Below, one piece after another: positions 24,888-58,500 of a DNA stretch of 64,000 bases (its first letter is position 1; the number at the start of each line of letters is the position of its first letter). The notes below the pieces were generated by a model. It had not been told where the DNA came from and searched no databases. It worked only from the letters and a program-made list of their open reading frames with translations. The stretch comes from a phage: sequence record PZ019086.1; one strand, written 5' to 3'. The position numbers were made by a program, and so were the translations under genes.

Positions 24888-25807
24888 TGTATTCTTTAGA
24901 GGAATTTAATAATCAAGCAATAAACGCAGATTTCCAACGTAATAATATGTTTAGCTGCGTTTTTGCGACAACTCCATCAACTAAAAGCTCTTCGTTGATA
25001 AGTTCAATTAGCAACTTTTCTTATAATAACTTGGGTCTAAATTCAGATTGGTTAGGATTGACTCAAGGCGATATTAATCAGGGAATTACCACGCTAATTA
25101 CTGCTGGCACACAAAAACTGATAAGAAAATCAGGGGTTAGTAAATATCTTATTGGTGCCATGAGTCAACGTACAGTTCAAAGTTTATTGGGCTCATTTAC
25201 AGTTGGTACATATTTAATTGACTTCTTTAACATGGCATATAACTCATCTGGATTGATGATATATTCTGTAAAAATGCCAGAGAATAGATTATCCTATGAA
25301 ACTGACTGGAACTATAATTCTCCTAATATTCGTATAACTGGGAGAGAATTAGACCCTTTGGTTATTTCATTTAGGATGGATTCAGAAGCATGTAATTATC
25401 GTGCGATGCAAGACTGGGTTAACGCTGTTCAAGACCCAGTAACTGGATTGCGTGCTTTGCCACAAGATGTCGAGGCAGATATTCAGGTTAATCTTCATGC
25501 TCGTAATGGATTACCTCATACTGCGGTGATGTTCACCGGATGCATTCCAGTGTCAGTGAGCGCTCCTGAGTTATCATATGATGGAGATAACCAAATAACT
25601 ACATTTGATGTTACTTTTGCGTATAGAGTCATGCAGGCTGGGTCGGTTGATAGACAAGCTGCGCTTGAGTGGCTTGAATCTGCTGCTATAAACGGTATTC
25701 AAAGCGTTCTCGGAAATAGTGGAGGTGTTACTGGATTATCTAATTCGCTTTCACGACTTAGTAGATTAGGGGGAACTGCTGGAAGCATTTCCAACATTAT
25801 ACTATGA
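24887..25807 (+). CDS. 54: Baseplate tail tube initiator gp54, 306 aa
   Basis: Follows 48 with ATGA overlap; paralog-like to gp19/gp48. Confidence 0.92.
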   Translation: MYSLEEFNNQAINADFQRNNMFSCVFATTPSTKSSSLISSISNFSYNNLGLNSDWLGLTQGDINQGITTLITAGTQKLIRKSGVSKYLIGAMSQRTVQSLLGSFTVGTYLIDFFNMAYNSSGLMIYSVKMPENRLSYETDWNYNSPNIRITGRELDPLVISFRMDSEACNYRAMQDWVNAVQDPVTGLRALPQDVEADIQVNLHARNGLPHTAVMFTGCIPVSVSAPELSYDGDNQITTFDVTFAYRVMQAGSVDRQAALEWLESAAINGIQSVLGNSGGVTGLSNSLSRLSRLGGTAGSISNIIL

Positions 25808-25855
25808 CGGGAATTGTCAATTCGCAAAGTAAAATATTAGGAGCAATATAACAAT

Positions 25856-25885
25856 GGGGACCTTTCGGTCCCCATGTTTTTATTT
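25856..25885 (+). terminator. Rho-independent terminator after gene 54
   Basis: GGGGACC-TTTC-GGTCCCC hairpin followed by ATGTTTTTATTT. Confidence 0.7.
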
Positions 25886-26170
25886 ACGGAATGAAATAAA
25901 AGCAGCAACTGAAGCAACTAAACTGTCTTCAATATAAACTTCAATTTTTACCGGAGCTTCTGACTCAAATTTGCCTGTTACTACACCTTGGAAAATGCTT
26001 TCAGTCTGTTCTGGCTTTGAAAAATTTTCAGAAGGAAAAATTCCGAACTTTTTATCTGTTCCAAAAATTTTGATAAATTCATCATAAACTGCTTCATTAA
26101 AAGCATTATCAGCAGGAATAACGCCTTCAACTACAAGTTCTTGACCTAAAAAGCGCAAAGAAGATTTCAT
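25880..26170 (-). CDS. Hypothetical protein, 96 aa (54/alt intergenic position)
   Basis: ORF with GAGGA RBS; preceded by an early promoter. Confidence 0.6.
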   Translation of the reverse strand: MKSSLRFLGQELVVEGVIPADNAFNEAVYDEFIKIFGTDKKFGIFPSENFSKPEQTESIFQGVVTGKFESEAPVKIEVYIEDSLVASVAAFISFRK

Positions 26171-26195
26171 TTTGTGTTCCTCATGTTATGTCAGT

Positions 26196-26231
26196 AAGAT
26201 TATTATAACACAACACGAGGGACTTGTAAAC
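26196..26231 (-). promoter_or_regulatory. T4-type early promoter: GTTTACA-N17-TATAAT
   Basis: Minus strand reads GTTTACAAGTCCCTCGTGTTGTGTTATAAT; 53-nt region near-identical to 42093-42145. Confidence 0.7.
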
Positions 26232-28288
26232 TACATCTTGAACTTTTTAGACATTCCGTCGATGTTAACCAAAGAAGCTAAGATTTGAGAAACTTCGTTT
26301 TCCTCTTCTTTTGATTCTTCTACAAGGAATTGATTAAATCCAGCCATTGGACGAACTTCACCAGTTTCCATTAGATGGTCGCCATCATATACCGATTCTT
26401 CTAATTGTTCAGAAGGAGGAACGATTGTGCCTTCGATTAGATACTTGTTATAAGCAGTTTCTTTCATCATGTACGTGCTTACTTTATTAATCTTCAACAA
26501 AATTCCACGCGGTAAAATAACTTCAGCTTCTGATGGAAATCCTGATAAATGACCTGGAACGATAACTTTAATTCGCTCAGCCCCTTTAATTACCATACCT
26601 ACGCTAGTTTCAGCATCTTCATTCGCATAAGCAGAGTGACTACCCATATGCATTAAATCTTCAGCATCAACAGAACCTTCTCCTTCACCAGAAAATACTG
26701 CGCCGGAATCATCTAGAGCCATATAGTTTTTACCATGCTCACCGAAGATATTTGGTTTAAGCGATGTTGATACGAAGTTCTTGAAATAGAACATTTTATT
26801 TTCAATATTATGGCGTAAAGTTTTAAAGGTAACTTCTTGTCCACGATAAAGCGTAGTTCCTGGAGGAAGAACTGAACCTTTAGCGAATGCAGAATCCATT
26901 GTCTCGATGTGTTTAATAGCTCGTTCCATGTATTCTTCACGGGTAGAATCTGGTTTACCCAAGAGGAACGAGTTCATTTCAACATATGAATCTGCACAAT
27001 AATCTTCAATTACATCAGACTCAGCCTGAGTCAGTCCTTTTGGAGTTACTTCGGTGCTTGCATATTCATATGCCTGAGCAGCAGATTCATTAATCAATTT
27101 ATAAATGCCATTCATGACAAATTGAATAATAGCTACTTTTTCGTCTGGTGTGGCTTTAGAACCTTTAACTAAATCATTGATAATTTTCTTAATAACATCA
27201 AAGCTATTAGAAATATTAATGTCAGCGAGATCGCTCAAAATTTTATCGGTTTTATAATCAAAAAATTCTTTATTCTTTAAATATTCTTGAGAACCTTGAT
27301 ATGTTATATCGCTCTGCAGCTTGATAGACGGATCACGTAAACGCGCATGGGCCAATGCAATATGATTTCGGAAGCTTTCTAGTTCATAATCGTTAGATTT
27401 AAAACGAGAAGCACTTCTCATACCACCGATAGCTCCTTTGCCGAAGTTTGAACCAATCTGAATAACACCAGAGTTCATTGGTCCTTCTGCTTTATATACC
27501 GGAACTTTAGATTCAAACTCTTGATATTTCTTAGCGGCGAAGCTATCACCCTGAAGTGAAGCATCGACAGTAGAATATTGAGCTTGTGCTGCTAATCGAC
27601 GACTAATTTTAGTTTTCTGAATAACAGCTTGATCCGTACGCTTATCATTTTCTAAAGCAATAGAAGCGGCAACAGCAACAGCTTTAGGAACAGCATTACC
27701 TGTTTTAACGTCTACATAAACATCACCAACCTTTGATTCAACTTTTGTGAATAACTCAGTTGAAATAGGAGGTACACCTGGAATGTCTTCTAAATTGGCA
27801 TTTTTACGGTAAACCATAATATATGCATACTTTTTATCATAATCCCAGATTTCCTTTAAAAGAACATATCGACCTGCTCCTTTAGTACGTACTAAACGGT
27901 CAGCGATAACTTGCATTTGACGAGCTGCACCGTTTGTTTTACTCTTTAGTACGCGGAATAAGCATGCATCAATTTTATACTGTTTCATTGTCTGAAGAGC
28001 GGTATCAAAAACCGCATTAATGACACCAATTGGATTTCCACCTAAATTTTTAAGTTTAACTAATGATAGCTTTTCATTGACACCTATCATTACGATATGC
28101 ATCATTTTATCGCCTGGCTTAACGTTTTTATTTGTATCACCGCCAGAGGTGTATGTACAAAATCTAAATCCAGGAAGCACACTTTCTTCGCCGGCTTGAA
28201 TAGCAAAAATTTGAGGTATTTTATGCTTAGGATTTAAGTTAACAACCGGCGCCGAAGCGCCGTCAAATAATTCTGTAATAAGTTCCAT
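26231..28288 (-). CDS. Alt-like ADP-ribosyltransferase paralog, 685 aa
   Basis: N-terminus MELITELFD shared with Alt; C-terminal R (TLYRGQ), S-T-S (VSTSL) and E-x-E (EAEV) motifs. Confidence 0.85.
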   Translation of the reverse strand: MELITELFDGASAPVVNLNPKHKIPQIFAIQAGEESVLPGFRFCTYTSGGDTNKNVKPGDKMMHIVMIGVNEKLSLVKLKNLGGNPIGVINAVFDTALQTMKQYKIDACLFRVLKSKTNGAARQMQVIADRLVRTKGAGRYVLLKEIWDYDKKYAYIMVYRKNANLEDIPGVPPISTELFTKVESKVGDVYVDVKTGNAVPKAVAVAASIALENDKRTDQAVIQKTKISRRLAAQAQYSTVDASLQGDSFAAKKYQEFESKVPVYKAEGPMNSGVIQIGSNFGKGAIGGMRSASRFKSNDYELESFRNHIALAHARLRDPSIKLQSDITYQGSQEYLKNKEFFDYKTDKILSDLADINISNSFDVIKKIINDLVKGSKATPDEKVAIIQFVMNGIYKLINESAAQAYEYASTEVTPKGLTQAESDVIEDYCADSYVEMNSFLLGKPDSTREEYMERAIKHIETMDSAFAKGSVLPPGTTLYRGQEVTFKTLRHNIENKMFYFKNFVSTSLKPNIFGEHGKNYMALDDSGAVFSGEGEGSVDAEDLMHMGSHSAYANEDAETSVGMVIKGAERIKVIVPGHLSGFPSEAEVILPRGILLKINKVSTYMMKETAYNKYLIEGTIVPPSEQLEESVYDGDHLMETGEVRPMAGFNQFLVEESKEEENEVSQILASLVNIDGMSKKFKM

Positions 28289-28291
28289 GAT

Positions 28292-30340
28292 TTATCCTTG
28301 AACGAACTTGTAAGGCATGTTTGCGATATCTATGCAAGACGCAATAATTCCAAGAGATGATTCTGCTTTTTGTTTAACATTTGATGAAACAAATGATGCA
28401 AAGTCAACTCTATCTTCTATATCACCTGTCATTGTAACCAATTCACCAGTTTCCATTAAACGGTCACCGTCATAAATTACCGATTCGGTGAGTTCTTCTG
28501 TGGTCATAACTTCAGCTTGAATAAGCTTGTTGTTAGTTCTAACTGTTCCATCGTTGTAAGATGCATCAGTTATTTTATTGACTTTGACCATTAATCCACG
28601 TGGCAAAATGACTTCCATTTCATTTGAAGGTGCTAAACTTCCACCGGGTAAAACAACATTGACTTTATCAGCTCCAGTAATAACCCATCCAATTCCAACT
28701 AAATTATCGCTAGAATTAACAAGCCCTTCATCATTTTTATCGACAGAAATGCTTAGACGCTTTTCATCTGGTAAAACACCCACAGCTGAATCAGTCATCC
28801 AAGTACCAAAAATGTTTGGATATAATGATGTTGATACAAAATTTCTAAAATAAAAAACTCGATTTTTTACCAGTGCTTCATATATTGAAGGTAACATTCG
28901 TTGTGAACGATACAAAGTAATACCTTTTGGTAATCGTTCACCATTTTTAAAGGCTGAATCTAAATTATCAATGGCTTGTTCTATTTCAGGTGCTGTTAAA
29001 ATACTTGTACGCTCATCTGGATTATATAATCCCAAAAGAGCATTATTCATGTCTACATATCCTGAACCTACATATTCACGAATTCCGCGTTTTTGCGCTG
29101 GTGTGTATTTAGATGAATCTTTATTTTCGACTATAGGATGTAATGACCATCCAGCGGTAAGAGCATATCCACGTAATTCTCTTCGAATAATCTTTGTTTT
29201 TATTGCATTCCAAGAATTTTGTACTAACTCATTTGCAGCATCTTGGTTTAAATGCGAATGTCTGTTAATATTTCTTTCAAACCAAGCACCTTTATATTTT
29301 TCTAAAGTATCATCGACGATAGAAGCAATAGTTTCTAAAGTTTTTATTGAAGTAATAGATTCTTTTCGTAATTTTTCTAAAGCTTTATTTTTTATTTCTG
29401 CATTAACGTCAGATTCTTTATCTTCAGGAATTATAGAAGCTTCTCTGAATGCCATTCCAGCTGTAACACTATTAAGAGCATTCTCTAATGCAAATCCTGA
29501 AGTAGAAATAACAGTTAATTCGTTAGCATCAGAAATTAAAGGCGCGTCGGCGGGTTTATTTAATTCTGCTGCTGAAGCCTCAAATTTTTGAAACATTGGT
29601 GTTTCAAATCTAGAAGATTCTAATGATTGACTTTGTGCAATTGCTCTACGGGAAATTTTAACTTTAACGATTACAGCTTGGTCAGAACGCTTATCATTTT
29701 CTTGTGCAATAGATGCTGCAATTGCCTCATTTTTAGTTACTTGAGCTCCAGTATCTTTATTGATATAAACATCACCGACCTTCGATTCAACTTTAGTAAA
29801 GAGCTCGGTACTAATTTCCGGAACTCCTGGAATGTCTTCTAGTGATACATTTTTGCGATGTATAAGAATATATGCATACTTTTTATCATAATCCCAGAGT
29901 TCCTTAAGAAGGACGTATCTGCCACCTGAACGACTACGGATAAGTCTATCAGCAATAACTTGAATTTGTCGAGCTTGACCAGCAGTTTTAGACTTAAGAA
30001 TACGAAGCATGCAGGCATCAATTTTATACTGGCGCATCGTCTGCATTGCAACAGTAAAAACTGAATTGATGTAATTAATTGGGCTTGGACCGAGACCTTT
30101 TAATTTAGCAATTGAACCTTTAGCAGTTAATGTAAAAGGAACAATATGCATCATTTTATCACCCATTTTTAAATCGCGATTAGTATCACCTCCAGATGTA
30201 TAGGTACATAAACGAAAGCCTGGTTGTTCAATTGCATCATCAACGTGAACTGAAAAAATTTGTGGTATTTTCTTCTTTGGATTTAAGTTTGTAATCGGAA
30301 GAGTAGTATCTTCGTCAAATAATTCTGTAATAAGTTCCAT
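28292..30340 (-). CDS. alt: Alt ADP-ribosyltransferase, about 682 aa
   Basis: Matches remembered T4 Alt N-terminus MELITELFDEDTTLPITNL; R/STS/ExE motifs (TLYRSQ, VSTSL, EMEV); minus-strand late promoter just upstream. Confidence 0.93.
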   Translation of the reverse strand: MELITELFDEDTTLPITNLNPKKKIPQIFSVHVDDAIEQPGFRLCTYTSGGDTNRDLKMGDKMMHIVPFTLTAKGSIAKLKGLGPSPINYINSVFTVAMQTMRQYKIDACMLRILKSKTAGQARQIQVIADRLIRSRSGGRYVLLKELWDYDKKYAYILIHRKNVSLEDIPGVPEISTELFTKVESKVGDVYINKDTGAQVTKNEAIAASIAQENDKRSDQAVIVKVKISRRAIAQSQSLESSRFETPMFQKFEASAAELNKPADAPLISDANELTVISTSGFALENALNSVTAGMAFREASIIPEDKESDVNAEIKNKALEKLRKESITSIKTLETIASIVDDTLEKYKGAWFERNINRHSHLNQDAANELVQNSWNAIKTKIIRRELRGYALTAGWSLHPIVENKDSSKYTPAQKRGIREYVGSGYVDMNNALLGLYNPDERTSILTAPEIEQAIDNLDSAFKNGERLPKGITLYRSQRMLPSIYEALVKNRVFYFRNFVSTSLYPNIFGTWMTDSAVGVLPDEKRLSISVDKNDEGLVNSSDNLVGIGWVITGADKVNVVLPGGSLAPSNEMEVILPRGLMVKVNKITDASYNDGTVRTNNKLIQAEVMTTEELTESVIYDGDRLMETGELVTMTGDIEDRVDFASFVSSNVKQKAESSLGIIASCIDIANMPYKFVQG

Positions 30341-30363
30341 CATAGCCTCTCTAGTGTTTATTC

Positions 30364-30371
30364 TATTTATA
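30364..30371 (-). promoter_or_regulatory. Late promoter TATAAATA (minus strand) upstream of alt
   Basis: Plus-strand TATTTATA, i.e. TATAAATA on the minus strand, about 20 nt upstream of alt start. Confidence 0.6.
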
Positions 30372-30392
30372 AAATTAAAGGCCCGAAGGCCT

Positions 30393-30581
30393 TTAATAAT
30401 CTATTGGTAAGAGAGTACGGTATATTTCAAACTTTGGGCCTTTTTCGTAGGCATCAAATGTTTCTGTAAATTTATTATAAGCATATGCATCTACAAATTC
30501 GAGAACGATTTGTGATACAGAAGTAGAAACATCTCCACCTTCTTTTTGAGCAACGACAATTGTTTCTAAGTAAGCTTTCAT
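30393..30581 (-). CDS. Hypothetical small protein, 62 aa, coupled to gene 30 stop
   Basis: ATG overlaps gene 30 TGA (ATGA); no domain recognised. Confidence 0.45.
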   Translation of the reverse strand: MKAYLETIVVAQKEGGDVSTSVSQIVLEFVDAYAYNKFTETFDAYEKGPKFEIYRTLLPIDY

Positions 30582-32041
30582 AGACCAGTTACCTCATGAA
30601 AATCACCAAATACATCCTCGAATGTATTAGCTTTAGTTTTATCTTCACGTAAACGAATCGCAATTGGAAGAAATAATTTTACGTAATCAGTGCGGCCATC
30701 AGATTTTAACCAACCATTGCATTCGCACTCTAGAATTTTTCCAATATAATAATTTTGGTTTTCCATAATGCGAGTACGGTCAAGTTCATGCGATTTTACA
30801 CCGGCTTTATCTTTTAAGCCTGAACCAGCATTTACTTTAATTTTTCCACACTCTGATTCAAGAATAAATCCACCTGCTTTAGTAGGGTCTTTACGATGAG
30901 GATAAATTCCTACAATTTTTAAATCAACATCAATTACTTCTTTAAATTTATAGAGATTTTTTGAACGAGAATTTTCCCATAATCCATCGGTATTTTTGAG
31001 AATAATACCTTCAAGACCTTGGTCAATATACTTTTTATAAATTACCTTAGCTTCATCTAGGTTATTTACTACCTGGTTTTCAATTAAAATTACTTTATCA
31101 TATCCTGATGTCATTTGTTCTAGTTTAGAAAAACGTACATCATATTTTAAACGAAACGCCGGAAGACCATATATTTCTACCAACGGGACATAATCCCAGA
31201 CCTGAAACTTCATGCATTGAGCTTCTTTTTCAGAAATGGTTCCTTTTAAGGATTTATTGGCGATTCCATTAGAAGTAGTACGAGATTCTGCTACTTCGGC
31301 GAATTCTTTAGCTTTACTAATTTCAGGATAAGCATCAAAAAGAAAATCTAGGCCTTCTGGTTCCTTTTCAACTTGCTCATGGTATACCAATTCGCCATCA
31401 ATTAACACACCTTCTGGATGAATCTGGCGGGCTTCAGCAGTCATTTTGATTAACTCTTCCTTGAGAAGATCTAATCCTAGATATTCATTACCGGCTCGTG
31501 ATAAAAGACGAACATCATCTAATTCATCACCTCGGACTTCAGCAAAACACCGAGCTCCATCTGCTTTTAACTGCGCGAAGGCTGGAAATTTGATATTCTT
31601 ACTAATGCCTTTTTCATCATAAGAACTTGCCAGCATTTGAGGTTGTTCAGGAATTAAACCTGGCCAAACTTTGTTTGCAATAGATACTGAAGCACCGCAT
31701 TCAAGGTCTCGCATCATAACTCGACGCAAAACTTCAACATCATCCTTTTTACCATCAGTGATATATCCAGTTAATTCCTCAATTGCAGCATTTCCAGTCA
31801 ATTTCCGAGTAGCTAACGTGAATTCAATGAAGTCAAGCATATCGGTAATAGTCAGCATTCCAAAACTCTGGGTAGCAATACCAGGCTTAGGCCATTTCTT
31901 AATATAATACTGTAACCCACGAGAATAAGTCAGACGATATACCCGTTTAAGCAATTCATTATCTTTATTCTTTTCAAGAATTGCTTGCTTCTGCTTAGTT
32001 GATCCAATAGATGCTATTTCATTCAGAATTTTAAGAATCAT
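30578..32041 (-). CDS. 30: ATP-dependent DNA ligase (gp30), 487 aa
   Basis: 487 aa; adenylation motif KADGAR; matches T4 ligase length. Confidence 0.95.
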   Translation of the reverse strand: MILKILNEIASIGSTKQKQAILEKNKDNELLKRVYRLTYSRGLQYYIKKWPKPGIATQSFGMLTITDMLDFIEFTLATRKLTGNAAIEELTGYITDGKKDDVEVLRRVMMRDLECGASVSIANKVWPGLIPEQPQMLASSYDEKGISKNIKFPAFAQLKADGARCFAEVRGDELDDVRLLSRAGNEYLGLDLLKEELIKMTAEARQIHPEGVLIDGELVYHEQVEKEPEGLDFLFDAYPEISKAKEFAEVAESRTTSNGIANKSLKGTISEKEAQCMKFQVWDYVPLVEIYGLPAFRLKYDVRFSKLEQMTSGYDKVILIENQVVNNLDEAKVIYKKYIDQGLEGIILKNTDGLWENSRSKNLYKFKEVIDVDLKIVGIYPHRKDPTKAGGFILESECGKIKVNAGSGLKDKAGVKSHELDRTRIMENQNYYIGKILECECNGWLKSDGRTDYVKLFLPIAIRLREDKTKANTFEDVFGDFHEVTGL

Positions 32042-37689: not shown

Positions 37690-38024
37690 TTCATAATCAC
37701 CAGATAAGCAGATTTAGCAGTTTCAACACGATAAATTTCGTGACGAAGTTTAGTTATACTTTTAATAACAGAACTAATTATATTCTGCCCATCTTTAAAG
37801 CGGTTTTTCTTATCAATAAAAATTGCACCAACCATCTTTTTGTGAAGCTCAACTGGATACTTCGTCACAATAATAGCATCATACACAGAAGGATGAATAC
37901 TATTCACTAGAGTATCATTCATTAAAGTTATTCTAATGAACTGTGCTGTTTCAGAATCAAGCGCTCTATGATCGCCAGTATCATTTTCAAGACAATTATC
38001 AATTATATCAGTTAAATTCATCAT
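37686..38024 (-). CDS. Hypothetical protein, 112 aa
   Basis: ORF coupled to neighbours. Confidence 0.6.
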   Translation of the reverse strand: MMNLTDIIDNCLENDTGDHRALDSETAQFIRITLMNDTLVNSIHPSVYDAIIVTKYPVELHKKMVGAIFIDKKNRFKDGQNIISSVIKSITKLRHEIYRVETAKSAYLVIMK

Positions 38025-41240: not shown

Positions 41241-41590
41241 TTAGAAAGGTCCTGGATGTCTTCTGCGAACTTGTTGAAGGAGTTGTTGATTTGTTTTTCA
41301 ACCAATCCTGGCTTATGAGCCACCACATCCGCCTTCTTTGCGTCTTTGCGCAGTTTTTCATTTTCACGCTCAATAGCAGCAATTGCCTCACGATTTTTAT
41401 TATTCATCGCATCAATATAATTATACTGAATTCGCAAATTATTTAATGCTAAAGCGTTTTCATTGGCTGTTTTTGTAATTTCAGTAACCGATGTTTCTAA
41501 TCTTTCTACCTTATTTTTTAAAATAATAGATGTTCCGCCAAATGCTATTACAAGTAATAGCAATCCAGCTGTAAAATTACTTACATGCAT
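41237..41590 (-). CDS. N-terminal TM plus coiled-coil protein, probable i-spanin, 117 aa
   Basis: Hydrophobic helix LLLLVIAFGGTSIIL followed by a charged coiled-coil-like region; paired with the downstream lipoprotein. Confidence 0.65.
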   Translation of the reverse strand: MHVSNFTAGLLLLVIAFGGTSIILKNKVERLETSVTEITKTANENALALNNLRIQYNYIDAMNNKNREAIAAIERENEKLRKDAKKADVVAHKPGLVEKQINNSFNKFAEDIQDLSK

Positions 41591-42084
41591 AAAGTTTTAA
41601 TAACCTCTACAATATCGTCTTGAGAAAGACCGTTAATTAAAATATGATGTTCAGCCGGAGATTTAGAAATTTTAAAGCATGCCTCAACATCTTCTGCCAT
41701 ATCCGATGCGCTACGATTTGGATTACTAATTCCAAGACGATGTTTTCCCGTTAAAGGATTAACGATGATATAGCATTTACAGTTGTTAATATGAACATTA
41801 GGTTGAGTCTGATTAATGAACACATCGCAATCATATTTCGCAAGCTGATTTTCTAAAAAGACTTTCATCTCCTCAACCGCATCAGGAAGCATATCGCGGG
41901 CTTGCTCAAGACGACGATTTCGATATTCTTTAATGGTCGTTTTCCGCTTGACTTGCTTAGCTAAATCTTTCTTAAGATCGGTGATATATCCAACTCGACG
42001 ATTTCCTTTAAATACAGAAATCCCATCTGTAGTATCACCGTATGCTTCAACGACCATCTCAGTAGTAATAAGCTGTAAATCCAT
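41581..42084 (-). CDS. alc: Alc (transcription termination on cytosine-containing DNA), about 167 aa
   Basis: Length and position between the pseT.x ORFs and rnlA as in T4; preceded by an early promoter. Confidence 0.8.
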   Translation of the reverse strand: MDLQLITTEMVVEAYGDTTDGISVFKGNRRVGYITDLKKDLAKQVKRKTTIKEYRNRRLEQARDMLPDAVEEMKVFLENQLAKYDCDVFINQTQPNVHINNCKCYIIVNPLTGKHRLGISNPNRSASDMAEDVEACFKISKSPAEHHILINGLSQDDIVEVIKTLCM

Positions 42085-42109
42085 CATAAAGTCCTCATGT
42101 TATGTCAGT

Positions 42110-42145
42110 AAGACTACTATAACACAACACGAGGGACTTGTAAAC
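42110..42145 (-). promoter_or_regulatory. T4-type early promoter GTTTACA-N17-TATAGT upstream of alc
   Basis: Second copy of the 53-nt promoter/leader element (51/53 identical to 26179-26231). Confidence 0.65.
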
Positions 42146-50865: not shown

Positions 50866-50894
50866 ATAGTATCACACTACTACCCTTCTGTAAA
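50866..50894 (-). promoter_or_regulatory. T4-type early promoter GTTTACA-N17-TACTAT
   Basis: Minus strand GTTTACAGAAGGGTAGTAGTGTGATACTAT upstream of ORF start 50840. Confidence 0.6.
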
Positions 50895-51590: not shown

Positions 51591-51619
51591 ATAGTACCAT
51601 AGTCCTTGTGGCATGTAAA
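51591..51619 (-). promoter_or_regulatory. T4-type early promoter GTTTACA-N17-TACTAT
   Basis: Minus strand GTTTACATGCCACAAGGACTATGGTACTAT about 45 nt upstream of ATG 51547. Confidence 0.6.
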
Positions 51620-55555: not shown

Positions 55556-58500
55556 ATGGCCGAGATTAAAAGAAAGTTCAGAGCAGAAGATGGTCTGGAC
55601 GCAGGTGGCGATAAAATAATCAACGTAGCTTTAGCTGATCGTGCCGTAGGAACTGACGGTGTTAACGTTGATTACCTAATTCAAGAAAACACAGTTCAAC
55701 AATACGATCCAACTCGTGGATATTTAAAAGATTTTGTAATCATTTATGATAACCGCTTTTGGGCTGCTATAAATGATATTCCAAAACCGGCAGGAGCTTT
55801 TAATAGCGGACGCTGGAGAGCATTACGTACCGATGCTAACTGGATTACAGTCTCATCTGGTTCATATCAATTAAAATCTGGTGAAGCTATTTCGGTTAAC
55901 ACTGCAGCTGGTAATGATATTACATTTACTTTACCATCTACTCCAATTGACGGTGATACTATCGTTCTCCAAGATATTGGAGGAAAACCTGGAGTTAACC
56001 AAGTTTTAATTGTAGCTCCAGTGCAAAGTATTGTAAACTTCAGAGGCGAGCAAGTACGTTCAGTACTAATGACTCATCCAAAGTCACAGTTAGTTTTAAT
56101 TTTTAGTAATCGTCTGTGGCAAATGTATGTAGCTGATTATAGTAGAGAAGCTGTAGTTGTAACACCAGCGAATACTTATCAAGCGCAATCTAACGATTTT
56201 ATCGTACGTAGATTTACTTCTGCTGCACCGATAAATATTAAACTTCCGAGATTTGCTAATCACGGCGATATTATTAATTTCGTCGATTTGGATAAATTAA
56301 ATCCTCTTTATCATACAATTGTTACTACATACGATGAAACTACTTCAGTACAAGAAGATGGAACTCATTCTATTGAAGGCCGTACATCTATTGATGGCTT
56401 TTTAATGTATGATGATAATGAAAAATTGTGGAGATTGTTTGACGGGGATAATAAAGCACGTTTACGTATTATAACAACTAATTCAAATATTCGTCCAAAT
56501 GAAGAAGTTATGGTATTTGGTGCGAATAACGGAACAGCTCAGACAATTGAGCTTAAGCTTCCAACTAATATTTCTGTTGGTGATACTGTTAAAATTTCCA
56601 TGAATTACATGAGAAAAGGACAAACAGTTAAAATCAAAGCTGCCGGTGAAGATAAAATTGCTTCTTCAGTTCAATTGCTGCAATTCCCAAAACGTTCAGA
56701 GTATCCACCTGAAGCTGAATGGGTGACTGTCCAAGAATTAGTTTTTAACGGTGAAACTAATTATGTTCCAGTTTTACAACTTGCTTATATAGAAGATTCT
56801 GATGGAAAATACTGGGTTGTACAACAAAACGTTCCAACCGTAGAAAGAGTTGATTCTTTAAACGATTCTACTAGAGCAAGATTAGGCGTGATTGCTTTAG
56901 CTACACAAGCGCAAGCTAATGTCGATTTAGAAAATTCTCCACAAAAAGAATTAGCAATTACTCCAGAAACATTAGCTAACCGTACTGCTACAGAAACTCG
57001 TAGAGGTATCGCGAGAATAGCAACCACTGCTCAAGTAAATCAGAACACCACATTCTCTTTTGCTGATGATATTATCATTACACCTAAAAAGCTGAATGAA
57101 AGAACTGCTACAGAAACTCGTAGAGGTGTTGCTGAAATTGCTACGCAACAGGAAACTAATGCAGGTACTGATGATACTACAATCATCACTCCTAAAAAGC
57201 TTCAAGCTCGTCAGGGTTCTGAATCATTATCTGGTATTGTAACCTTTGTATCTACTGCAGGAGCTACTCCAGCCTCTAGTCGTGAATTAAATGGTACAAA
57301 CGTTTATAATAAAAACACTAATAATTTAGTCGTTTCGCCTAAAGCTTTGGATCAGTATAAAGCTACTCCAACACAACAGGGTGCAGTAATTTTAGCAGTT
57401 GAAAGTGAAGTAATTGCTGGACAGAGTCAAGAAGGATGGGCAAATGCGGTTGTAACGCCAGAAACGTTACATAAAAAGACATCAACTGATGGAAGAATTG
57501 GTTTAATTGAAATTGCTACACAAAGTGAAGTTAATACAGGAACTGATTATACTCGTGCAGTCACTCCTAAAACTTTAAATGACCGTAAAGCAACTGAAAG
57601 TTTAAGTGGTATAGCTGAAATTGCTACACAAGTTGAATTCGACGCAGGCGTCGACGATACTCGTATCTCTACACCATTAAAAATTAAAACTAGATTTAAT
57701 AGTACTGATCGTACTTCTGTTGTTGCTCTATCTGGATTAGTTGAATCAGGAACTCTCTGGGACCATTATACCCTTAATATTCTTGAAGCAAATGAGACAC
57801 AGCGTGGTACACTTCGTGTAGCTACACAAGTTGAAGCTGCTGCAGGAACATTGGATAATGTTTTAATAACTCCTAAAAAGCTTTTAGGTACTAAATCTAC
57901 TGAAGCACAGGAAGGTGTTATTAAAGTTGCAACTCAGTCTGAAACTGTGACTGGAACGTCAGCAAATACTGCTGTATCTCCAAAAAATTTAAAATGGATT
58001 GTGCAGAGTGAACCTACTTGGGCAGCTACTACTGCGATAAGAGGCTTTGTTAAAACTTCATCCGGTTCAATTACATTCGTTGGTAATGATACAGTTGGTT
58101 CAACACAGAACTTAGAGCTATACGAGAAAAATAGCTATGCAGTATCACCGTATGAATTAAACCGTGTATTAGCAAATTACTTGCCATTAAAAGCAAAAGC
58201 TGCTGACACGAATTTATTGGATGGCCTAGATTCATCTCAGTTCATTCGTAGGGACATTGCACAGACGGTTAATGGTTCACTAACCTTAACCAAACAAACG
58301 AATCTGAGTGCCCCTCTTGTATCATCTAGTACTGCTACGTTTGGTGGTTCAGTTTCGGCAAATAGTACATTAACTATTTCTAACTCTGGAACAGCAACTC
58401 GTCTGATTTTTGAGAAAGGACCTCAAACTGGAACTAACCCAGCGCAGACGATGACTATCAGAGTTTGGGGAAATCAGTTCGGTGGCGGTTCAGATACAAC

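Follow-up and report, generated by a model that had tools for sequence, protein, structure and literature searches.

The DNA immediately upstream of alc and alt.-3 in this phage consists of two copies of one 54-nt cassette, and we are highly confident that it is a duplicated early promoter embedded in a predicted hairpin that masks the Shine-Dalgarno (SD) sequence. Our overall explanation, to which we give a probability of about 60%, is that the 54-mer is a self-contained early-expression cassette, one sequence with two jobs. At the DNA level it would be a strong T4 early promoter of the sigma70 type (TTTACA, 17 bp, TGnTATA(A/G)T), and in the sense RNA its segment CCCTCGTGTTGTGTT would pair with GACATAACATGAGG, the -10 and start-site region forming the loop. 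A transcript from the cassette's own promoter would begin in this loop and lack the 5' arm, leaving the ribosome site open and allowing alc and alt.-3 to be translated right after infection, whereas RNA derived from further upstream would carry both arms and have its ribosome site locked. With own transcripts open and read-through transcripts locked, translation would therefore be tied to the gene's own early promoter. That the hairpin gates translation in this way is a prediction from folding, which we judge only slightly better than an even bet.

The window, by which we mean the whole 64,000-nt stretch of DNA that was analysed (PZ019086.1), is from a Tequatrovirus and is 98.6% identical to phage EPIMRB01. 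Both copies lie on its minus strand (26231-26178 and 42145-42092) and read GTTTACAAGTCCCTCGTGTTGTGTTATA(A/G)TA(A/G)TCTTACTGACATAACATGAGGA. They share 52 of 54 nucleotides, differing only by A/G at cassette positions 29 and 32, and in 100 dinucleotide-preserving shuffles the expected number of matches was 0. The original prediction had described a 53-nt minus-strand duplicate (26179-26231 and 42093-42145, 51 of 53 identical); this is confirmed, the identity running one base further. The repeats and the genes that they precede are as follows.

26178..26231, minus strand: cassette copy 1, the full 54-nt repeat before alt.-3 (sequence comparison)
25880..26170, minus strand: alt.-3 homologue, 96 aa, function unknown (homology; T4 Alt.-3 in PMC11618068)
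42092..42145, minus strand: cassette copy 2, the full 54-nt repeat before alc (sequence comparison)
41581..42087, minus strand: alc, inhibitor of host transcription, 168 aa (homology)

Copy 1 starts on the final stop-codon base of an Alt-like ADP-ribosyltransferase gene (26231-28288) and stops 8 nt short of the ATG of the 96-aa ORF; copy 2 begins 4 nt past the rnlA stop and ends 5 nt from the alc ATG. T4 holds the same pair, 53 of 54 positions identical, with TATAGT in both. When T-even genomes were searched with the bare 54-mer, as had been proposed for the 53-mer, the GenBank phage collection gave 999 places in 500 records, all T4-like and two per genome. The pair is fixed in about 500 Tequatrovirus genomes, T4 included, with exactly two copies in each, and is absent from the Dhakavirus, Mosigvirus, Jiaodavirus and Gaprivervirus-like relatives that were compared. 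The GenBank collection was taken as the measure of spread instead of IMG/VR, where an exact 22-mer scan returned only 6 loci. An apparent third copy in phage G28, from a 111-nt query with 3 places, was ruled out with the bare 54-mer. The earlier suggestion of a recent duplication is borne out as far as a copying event is concerned, but not as to recency in absolute terms, since the pair is fixed in so many genomes. The window also holds a repeat of another kind, a 68-nt unit that occurs three times at 56957-57627 on the plus strand. The copies have diverged to 66-71% identity and lie at spacings of 120 and 483 nt, and they look like a peptide motif repeated within a structural gene.

Each cassette has the elements of a sigma70-type T4 early promoter, namely TTTACA, a 17-bp spacer and TGn followed by TATAAT or TATAGT, together with an SD, GAGG, that lies 8 nt from the ATG at alt.-3 and 5 nt from it at alc. 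These elements support the earlier assignment of both copies as T4 early promoter, leader and SD feeding alc and the 96-aa ORF.

26225..26230, minus strand: -35 hexamer TTTACA, copy 1 (sigma70 scan)
26202..26210, minus strand: extended -10 TGTTATAAT, copy 1 (sigma70 scan)
26195, minus strand: predicted transcription start, an A, copy 1 (from spacing, 7 nt past the -10)
42139..42144, minus strand: -35 hexamer TTTACA, copy 2 (sequence)
42116..42124, minus strand: extended -10 TGTTATAGT, copy 2 (sequence)
42109, minus strand: predicted transcription start, copy 2 (from spacing)

The copy 1 promoter is the top sigma70 match in the 5.5 kb from 25500 to 31000 (11/12, plus the TG). A literature search found no paper mapping T4 start sites, and from the promoter geometry we infer a start at cassette position 37, about 7 nt after the -10. 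With the T4 early 'uber' UP/-35/TGn/-10 promoters (Hinton 2010, PMC2988021) the cassettes have in common the GTTTAC -35, the 17-bp spacer, the TGn and a -10 of the form TAnnnT. They differ in having no clear A/T-rich UP element, because the coding sequence of the upstream gene reaches the -35; the -40 to -60 region offers AAAAAG near -45 at alt.-3 and AAAAAATTT near -60 at alc, far weaker than at, for instance, the promoters at 51619 or 35145.

Two further observations concern the same short region. An ATG within the shared 3' arm (26182-26184 and 42096-42098) opens a mini-ORF of 5 codons at alt.-3 and 4 codons at alc, whose UGA overlaps the main AUG (AUGA); as a functional feature it was rejected, not being conserved in JS98 alc, and it is probably a coincidence. 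As to annotation, the record of the Yersinia phage fPS-2 lists predicted early promoters nearby but none at alc or alt.-3, though both its cassettes match the T4 alc cassette at 54/54, while in SA21RB (OL960580.1) the alc copy is annotated 'promoter'. Annotation pipelines overlook both cassette promoters in some genomes.

Could the repeat simply be the generic consensus of a T4 early promoter and leader? T4 early promoters do have more in common than their -35 and -10 elements (Hinton 2010, PMC2988021), and CTTAC..CAAAC..GAGGA is frequent in leaders. The alignment of early promoters nevertheless refutes this reading, whose residual probability we regard as negligible. The window has eight clear GTTTAC-N17-TAnnnT early promoters; the alc/alt.-3 pair scores 52/54, against a mean of 24.7 and a maximum of 35 for the other 27 pairs. 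In the complete Tequatrovirus genome CJY920, 38 sites give 703 promoter pairs with a mean of 26.5/54 (sd 4.7), and the alc/alt.-3 pair, at 50/54, is the second highest of them. Across genomes the pair scores 50-54 of 54, so that its spacer and leader identity stands far above the generic consensus, in the window as in CJY920. Extreme though it is among early promoters, the pair is not unique, and the earlier statement that ordinary early promoters share only the -35 and -10 holds within the window (at most 35/54) but fails genome-wide. CJY920 sites 28429 and 160401, which are 53/54 identical and have a common UP element, are closer to each other than are alc and alt.-3. They belong to a second early-promoter family of 4-6 members, with a near-identical UP element aaaaattttttcacaaaac and leader GGTACTATACAACTATCAACTACTGATACAGA, whose sites are 51619 (minus strand) in the window and 4827, 28429, 63398 (before motA), 160401, 59768 and 79768 in CJY920.

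The original prediction had taken spacer and leader as separate items. Folding shows instead that they are the two arms of one hairpin, in which the SD is paired with the promoter spacer: the spacer and extended -10 (positions 11-25, CCCTCGTGTTGTGTT) are complementary to the leader and SD (positions 40-53, GACATAACATGAGG).

26207..26221, minus strand: hairpin 5' arm (anti-SD) CCCTCGTGTTGTGTT, copy 1, upstream of the start site (RNA folding)
26179..26192, minus strand: hairpin 3' arm GACATAACATGAGG, copy 1, with SD GAGG at 26179-26182 (RNA folding)
42121..42135, minus strand: hairpin 5' arm, copy 2 (RNA folding)
42093..42106, minus strand: hairpin 3' arm, copy 2, with SD GAGG at 42093-42096 (RNA folding)

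The predicted read-through hairpin has 15-17 bp, and at alc the helix is lengthened by pairing of AAGT (42136-42139) with ACTT (42089-42092). Since the 5' arm ends within the -10, any sigma70 start falls downstream of it, and the predicted GAGG-CCTC pairing places the SD in a helix only in transcripts derived from upstream. The earlier proposal to fold the shared leader was answered in two ways: the leader made from the cassette's own promoter is by itself nearly unstructured, but the sense RNA over the whole cassette folds strongly, as the minimum free energies (MFE) show.

Sense RNA across the cassette: alt.-3, -24.9 kcal/mol (z -4.3); alc, -31.9 kcal/mol (z -6.4)
Own-promoter RNA from position 37: alt.-3, -2.2 kcal/mol (z +0.65); alc, -3.2 kcal/mol (z -1.0)
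Antisense RNA: alt.-3, -17.8 kcal/mol (z -1.7); alc, -22.8 kcal/mol (z -4.3)

Not one of 200 shuffles, at either gene, folds as stably as the sense cassette RNA. The predicted cost of opening the region from SD-3 to AUG+5 is 16.5-20 kcal/mol in read-through RNA and about 2.3-4.5 kcal/mol in own-promoter RNA, irrespective of flank length; the own-promoter leader at alt.-3 is not wholly open, at a predicted cost of about 3-4 kcal/mol. The weaker fold of the antisense RNA is explained by the G.U pairs of the sense stem; there are three of these and, in the reference sequence, no A.C pair, a pattern that fits a structure formed in the sense RNA.

Other early cassettes in CJY920 also show spacer-SD complementarity. 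Those at 167185 (before regB, -22.4 kcal/mol), 48141 and 60274 (both near -23) form predicted SD-masking hairpins of -22 to -24 kcal/mol, and weaker pairing is seen at 37968 and at 97259 (window equivalent 35145). On these predicted folds, masking of the SD by the promoter spacer looks like a recurring design, not one peculiar to the alc/alt.-3 pair.

Comparison of alc upstream regions, from 21 IMG/VR T4-like contigs together with JS98, AV112 and Mineola, shows that the arms vary in sequence from lineage to lineage while their complementarity is kept. Pairing between spacer and SD is found in Tequatrovirus, an EcS1-like contig (L031), two further contigs (L032 and L037), three Jiaodavirus-like contigs and the Dhakavirus group, the alc cassettes of these lineages folding with MFE values of -17.6 to -25.7 (z -2.9 to -5.3).

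L031: 5' arm ATCCTCATTTTGTTG, 3' arm CAACAAAATGAGGAT, 15 bp
L037: 5' arm AACCTCTCATTTT, 3' arm AAAATGAGAGGTT, 13 bp
Jiaodavirus-like: 5' arm ATCCTCATCAG, 3' arm CTGATGAGGAT, 11 bp
L032: 5' arm TCTCCTCAG, 3' arm CTGAGGAGA, 9 bp

A MAFFT alignment across genera left the arms out of register and was replaced by per-sequence folds and by a test of own-arm against cross-lineage duplexes. In this test the duplexes of a cassette's own arms average -19.6 kcal/mol, compared with -11.8 for arms combined across lineages, and 8 of 20000 permutations reach the own-arm value. The per-sequence folds show no SD masking at alc in Mosigvirus (L039), L038 or L036/L047, in the last two of which the hairpin covers the -10 and leaves the SD free; masking is therefore not indispensable for alc. 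Among 20 distinct Tequatrovirus 54-mers, 97.5% of cells are paired. C15-G50 to U-A is the single fully compensatory change seen there, and four variant types break a pair; covariation within Tequatrovirus is not significant, 88 of 500 shuffles reaching the observed score at this low level of variation.

This lineage distribution also bears on whether the identity is maintained because a trans-acting factor, either protein or small RNA, binds the shared spacer or leader in co-regulating alc and alt.-3. In T4 both genes give early RNA and early protein (PMC9697503 supplement), and the 3' arm is almost invariant, both points in favour of such a factor. Outside Tequatrovirus, however, it is the pairing at alc that is conserved and not the sequence at either gene; Rfam gave no match at gathering score anywhere in the window; and the repeat holds no known T4 regulator site and no GGAG RegB motif, the region around the AUG lying outside it. 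We regard a trans-acting factor as highly improbable.

A neutral origin of the near-identity would have the pair as a leftover of copying that has had too little time to diverge, the alt.-3 hairpin having no selected function. The cassette does diverge between genomes about as fast as the coding DNA beside it, by 3.5% at alc and 6.3% at alt.-3, compared with 3-5% for coding flanks; the alt-like gene before alt.-3, whose truncation varies, is left out of that figure. The two copies in one genome are barely closer to each other than to copies from other genomes, with 2.29 as compared with 2.61 differences (p about 0.045, 17 genomes, a weak test of concerted evolution). The divergence is, however, unevenly spread over the cassette.

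-35: between-genome divergence 0%
3' arm: about 1-3%
5' arm: 5-10%
Loop: 7-11%

Against neutrality, then, stands the contrast between the -35 and 3' arm (0-2.6%) and the 5' arm and loop (5-11%), along with the covariation across lineages at alc and the fact that every change in the T2/T6-type alt.-3 cassette improves pairing with the local flank. That variant (11T, 15T, 16A) pairs with GAGGAAC, the flank specific to alt.-3, in a 17-bp helix free of bulges, at -25.7 compared with -23.0 kcal/mol. We consider a purely neutral leftover unlikely, and attribute the near-identity mainly to genus-level copying and shallow divergence of the genus, together with constraint on the -35 and 3' arm. Gene conversion between the copies may be continuing; a hand tally finds 4 derived variants common to both copies where about 1.5 are expected.

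How did alt.-3 come to have this cassette? In the outgroups (Dhakavirus, Gaprivervirus-like, Mosigvirus and Jiaodavirus), alt.-3 has an early promoter at the same place but with a different spacer, of the CACAAGGATGTG or CACAAGGA(T/C)GTG type, which forms a small spacer hairpin; in these outgroup cassettes the SD is not masked (z about -1 to +0.4). Only in Tequatrovirus, among the lineages compared, does alt.-3 have an alc-type cassette. The two cassettes probably arose by a copying event, and we infer, with somewhat less assurance, that the direction was from alc to alt.-3 in the Tequatrovirus ancestor. Pairing of the shared positions 7-10 (AAGT) with the alc-specific flank ACTT favours alc as donor, as do the three T2/T6-type alt.-3 changes that improve the fit to the alt.-3 flank, while the resemblance of the cassette 3' end, ACATGAGGA, to outgroup alt.-3 leaders speaks against it; plain identity leaves the direction unsettled (29/43 to JS98 alc, 28/44 to JS98 alt.-3). 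We envisage that the interior of the ancestral alt.-3 early cassette was replaced by that of alc through short ectopic recombination or gene conversion between the common cassette ends (GTTTACA ... ATGAGGA). The shared block runs from the universal GTTTACA to the near-universal ATGAGGA, and such block ends are what exchange between cassettes via conserved ends would give. A parallel is seen in another genus: in the Dhakavirus-like IMG/VR contig 2706795356, the alc cassette shares its last 32 nt, at the 3' end (ACCTTACACAAACATGAGGAGAACATTATGAA), with the alt.-3 cassette of that phage and differs there from JS98 alc. The same two loci have thus undergone a partial exchange of their own in this genus, in the opposite direction. 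A deletion or duplication hotspot between the direct repeats was also considered and set aside as unlikely to be viable, since genes 30 and 31 lie in the interval and a duplication of 14-16 kb would be too long for the headful.

The cassette can be filed as a variant of known T4 devices, combining the PeSL cassettes with the hairpin logic of e, soc, 49 and I-TevI. The PeSL cassettes of T4-type phages (Arbiol et al. 2010, PMC2839356; Comeau et al. 2014, PMC4122927) unite a stop codon, a sigma70-like early promoter (PST/T4 consensus TTTACW-N17-TAYWAT), a stem-loop, an SD and a start codon in a compact intergenic unit, and the alc and alt.-3 cassettes likewise pack the last four of these elements into a short intergenic space. 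PeSL units are repeated within a genome and are implicated in inter-cassette recombination, with crossovers mapped between the SD and -10 boxes (PMC2839356, PMC4122927); alc and alt.-3 also act as exchange points, given the alc-type cassette at Tequatrovirus alt.-3 and the reverse partial exchange in the Dhakavirus-like contig. There are differences. PeSL stems lie just upstream of the promoter in PST/T4, and in RB49/phi1 within the spacer, across a box or ahead of the start site (PMC2839356, PMC4122927), whereas here a single long stem runs from spacer to SD. The alc and alt.-3 copies are 14-16 kb apart around essential genes, so mini-circle excision would not be viable, and the PeSL papers treat termination and shuffling, not SD masking (PMC2839356, PMC4122927). 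Elsewhere in the window, minus-strand early promoters at 50894, 38838 and 34753 have an inverted repeat around the -10 (GGTACAGG...CCTGTACC, GGTAGAG...CTCTACC), forming PeSL-like stems with the SD outside.

The likeness to PeSL raises the possibility that the hairpin acts mainly on transcription or RNA stability, as an attenuator or terminator or as a 3'-end stabiliser of the rnlA and alt messages, and that the SD pairing is incidental. RB49/phi1 PeSL stem-loops cut downstream lacZ expression like a strong terminator (PMC2839356), and both hairpins here directly follow the stop codon of the upstream gene. The sequences, however, do not provide a terminator or attenuator stem-loop of the usual intrinsic form, a G+C-rich stem followed by a U-run: the alt.-3 stem has no U-run, the alc stem is followed only by CUUUAU, and a terminator scan of 25500-31000, which covered the alt.-3 region, did not call the alt.-3 hairpin. 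Moreover, the SD is a constant part of the 3' arm across lineages, as CCTC is of the 5' arm, and a mere terminator would have no need of this. We therefore think it rather unlikely that transcription or stability is the main target, and prefer predicted masking of the SD.

For such masking the T4 hairpins at e, soc, 49 and I-TevI provide the closest model (Uzan & Miller 2010, PMC3014915). There, long transcripts hide the SD and/or AUG in a helix, and a promoter in the 5' part of the structure yields transcripts that lack the 5' arm and are translated; the same layout is predicted at alc and alt.-3, neither of which is in that list. Those four genes have a late internal promoter (TATAAATA) and follow an early-off, late-on logic. 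At alc and alt.-3, in contrast, the internal promoter is a sigma70 early promoter, a motif scan finds no TATAAATA in either cassette, and the predicted logic is own-early-on, read-through-off.

For alc, read-through RNA would come from rnlA and genes further upstream. For alt.-3, the likely source is the late alt promoter.

30364..30371, minus strand: late promoter TATAAATA, 21 nt before the alt start (motif scan)
25854..25875, no strand assigned: bidirectional terminator hairpin lying between alt.-3 and gene 54 (terminator scan)

In the scan of 25500-31000, the minus strand has no terminator-like site between the late alt promoter and 25854-25875, so late alt RNA is expected to run on across the alt.-3 cassette. 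The T4 alt gene is late, with RNA at t7 and protein at t8 (PMC9697503), and the early RNA and protein of alc and alt.-3 noted above fit an active early cassette promoter and are compatible with masked translation later. In the same region, a terminator-like hairpin with a T-run (aaaggccttcgggccttt, 30372-30400) lies directly upstream of the late alt promoter, and 26231-28288 and 28292-30343 (minus strand) are tandem full-length alt paralogues of 685 and 683 aa, with about 72% nucleotide identity over long stretches. T4 has its second alt copy only as the degenerate remnants alt.-1 and alt.-2, and the stop codon of alt.-2 is the TAG within the cassette -10 (TATAGT).

If gating is real, it would explain why alt.-3 protein is only early despite the position of the gene behind the late alt gene or genes, and synthesis of Alc could be confined to the first minutes of infection although longer transcripts cross alc. 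T4 omics data include mRNA and protein timing mismatches that are unexplained (PMC9697503), to which translation that depends on the promoter of origin would be a testable contributor. For constructs that use T4 early promoters, the prediction is that the spacer can mask the SD.

More broadly, and with less than even confidence, we propose that T4-type phages have a portable early cassette of a 'self-unmasking' kind. In it the sigma70 spacer would also serve as an anti-Shine-Dalgarno sequence, translation may depend on the promoter of origin, and short-patch copying would move the unit between genes. On this tentative proposal, alc and alt.-3 would have exchanged cassettes independently in two genera and in opposite directions, and further examples would include regB and other early genes. 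Such a cassette would be the early-promoter counterpart of the late-promoter hairpins of e, soc, 49 and I-TevI, and PeSL-type cassettes would gain a translational role besides termination and shuffling.
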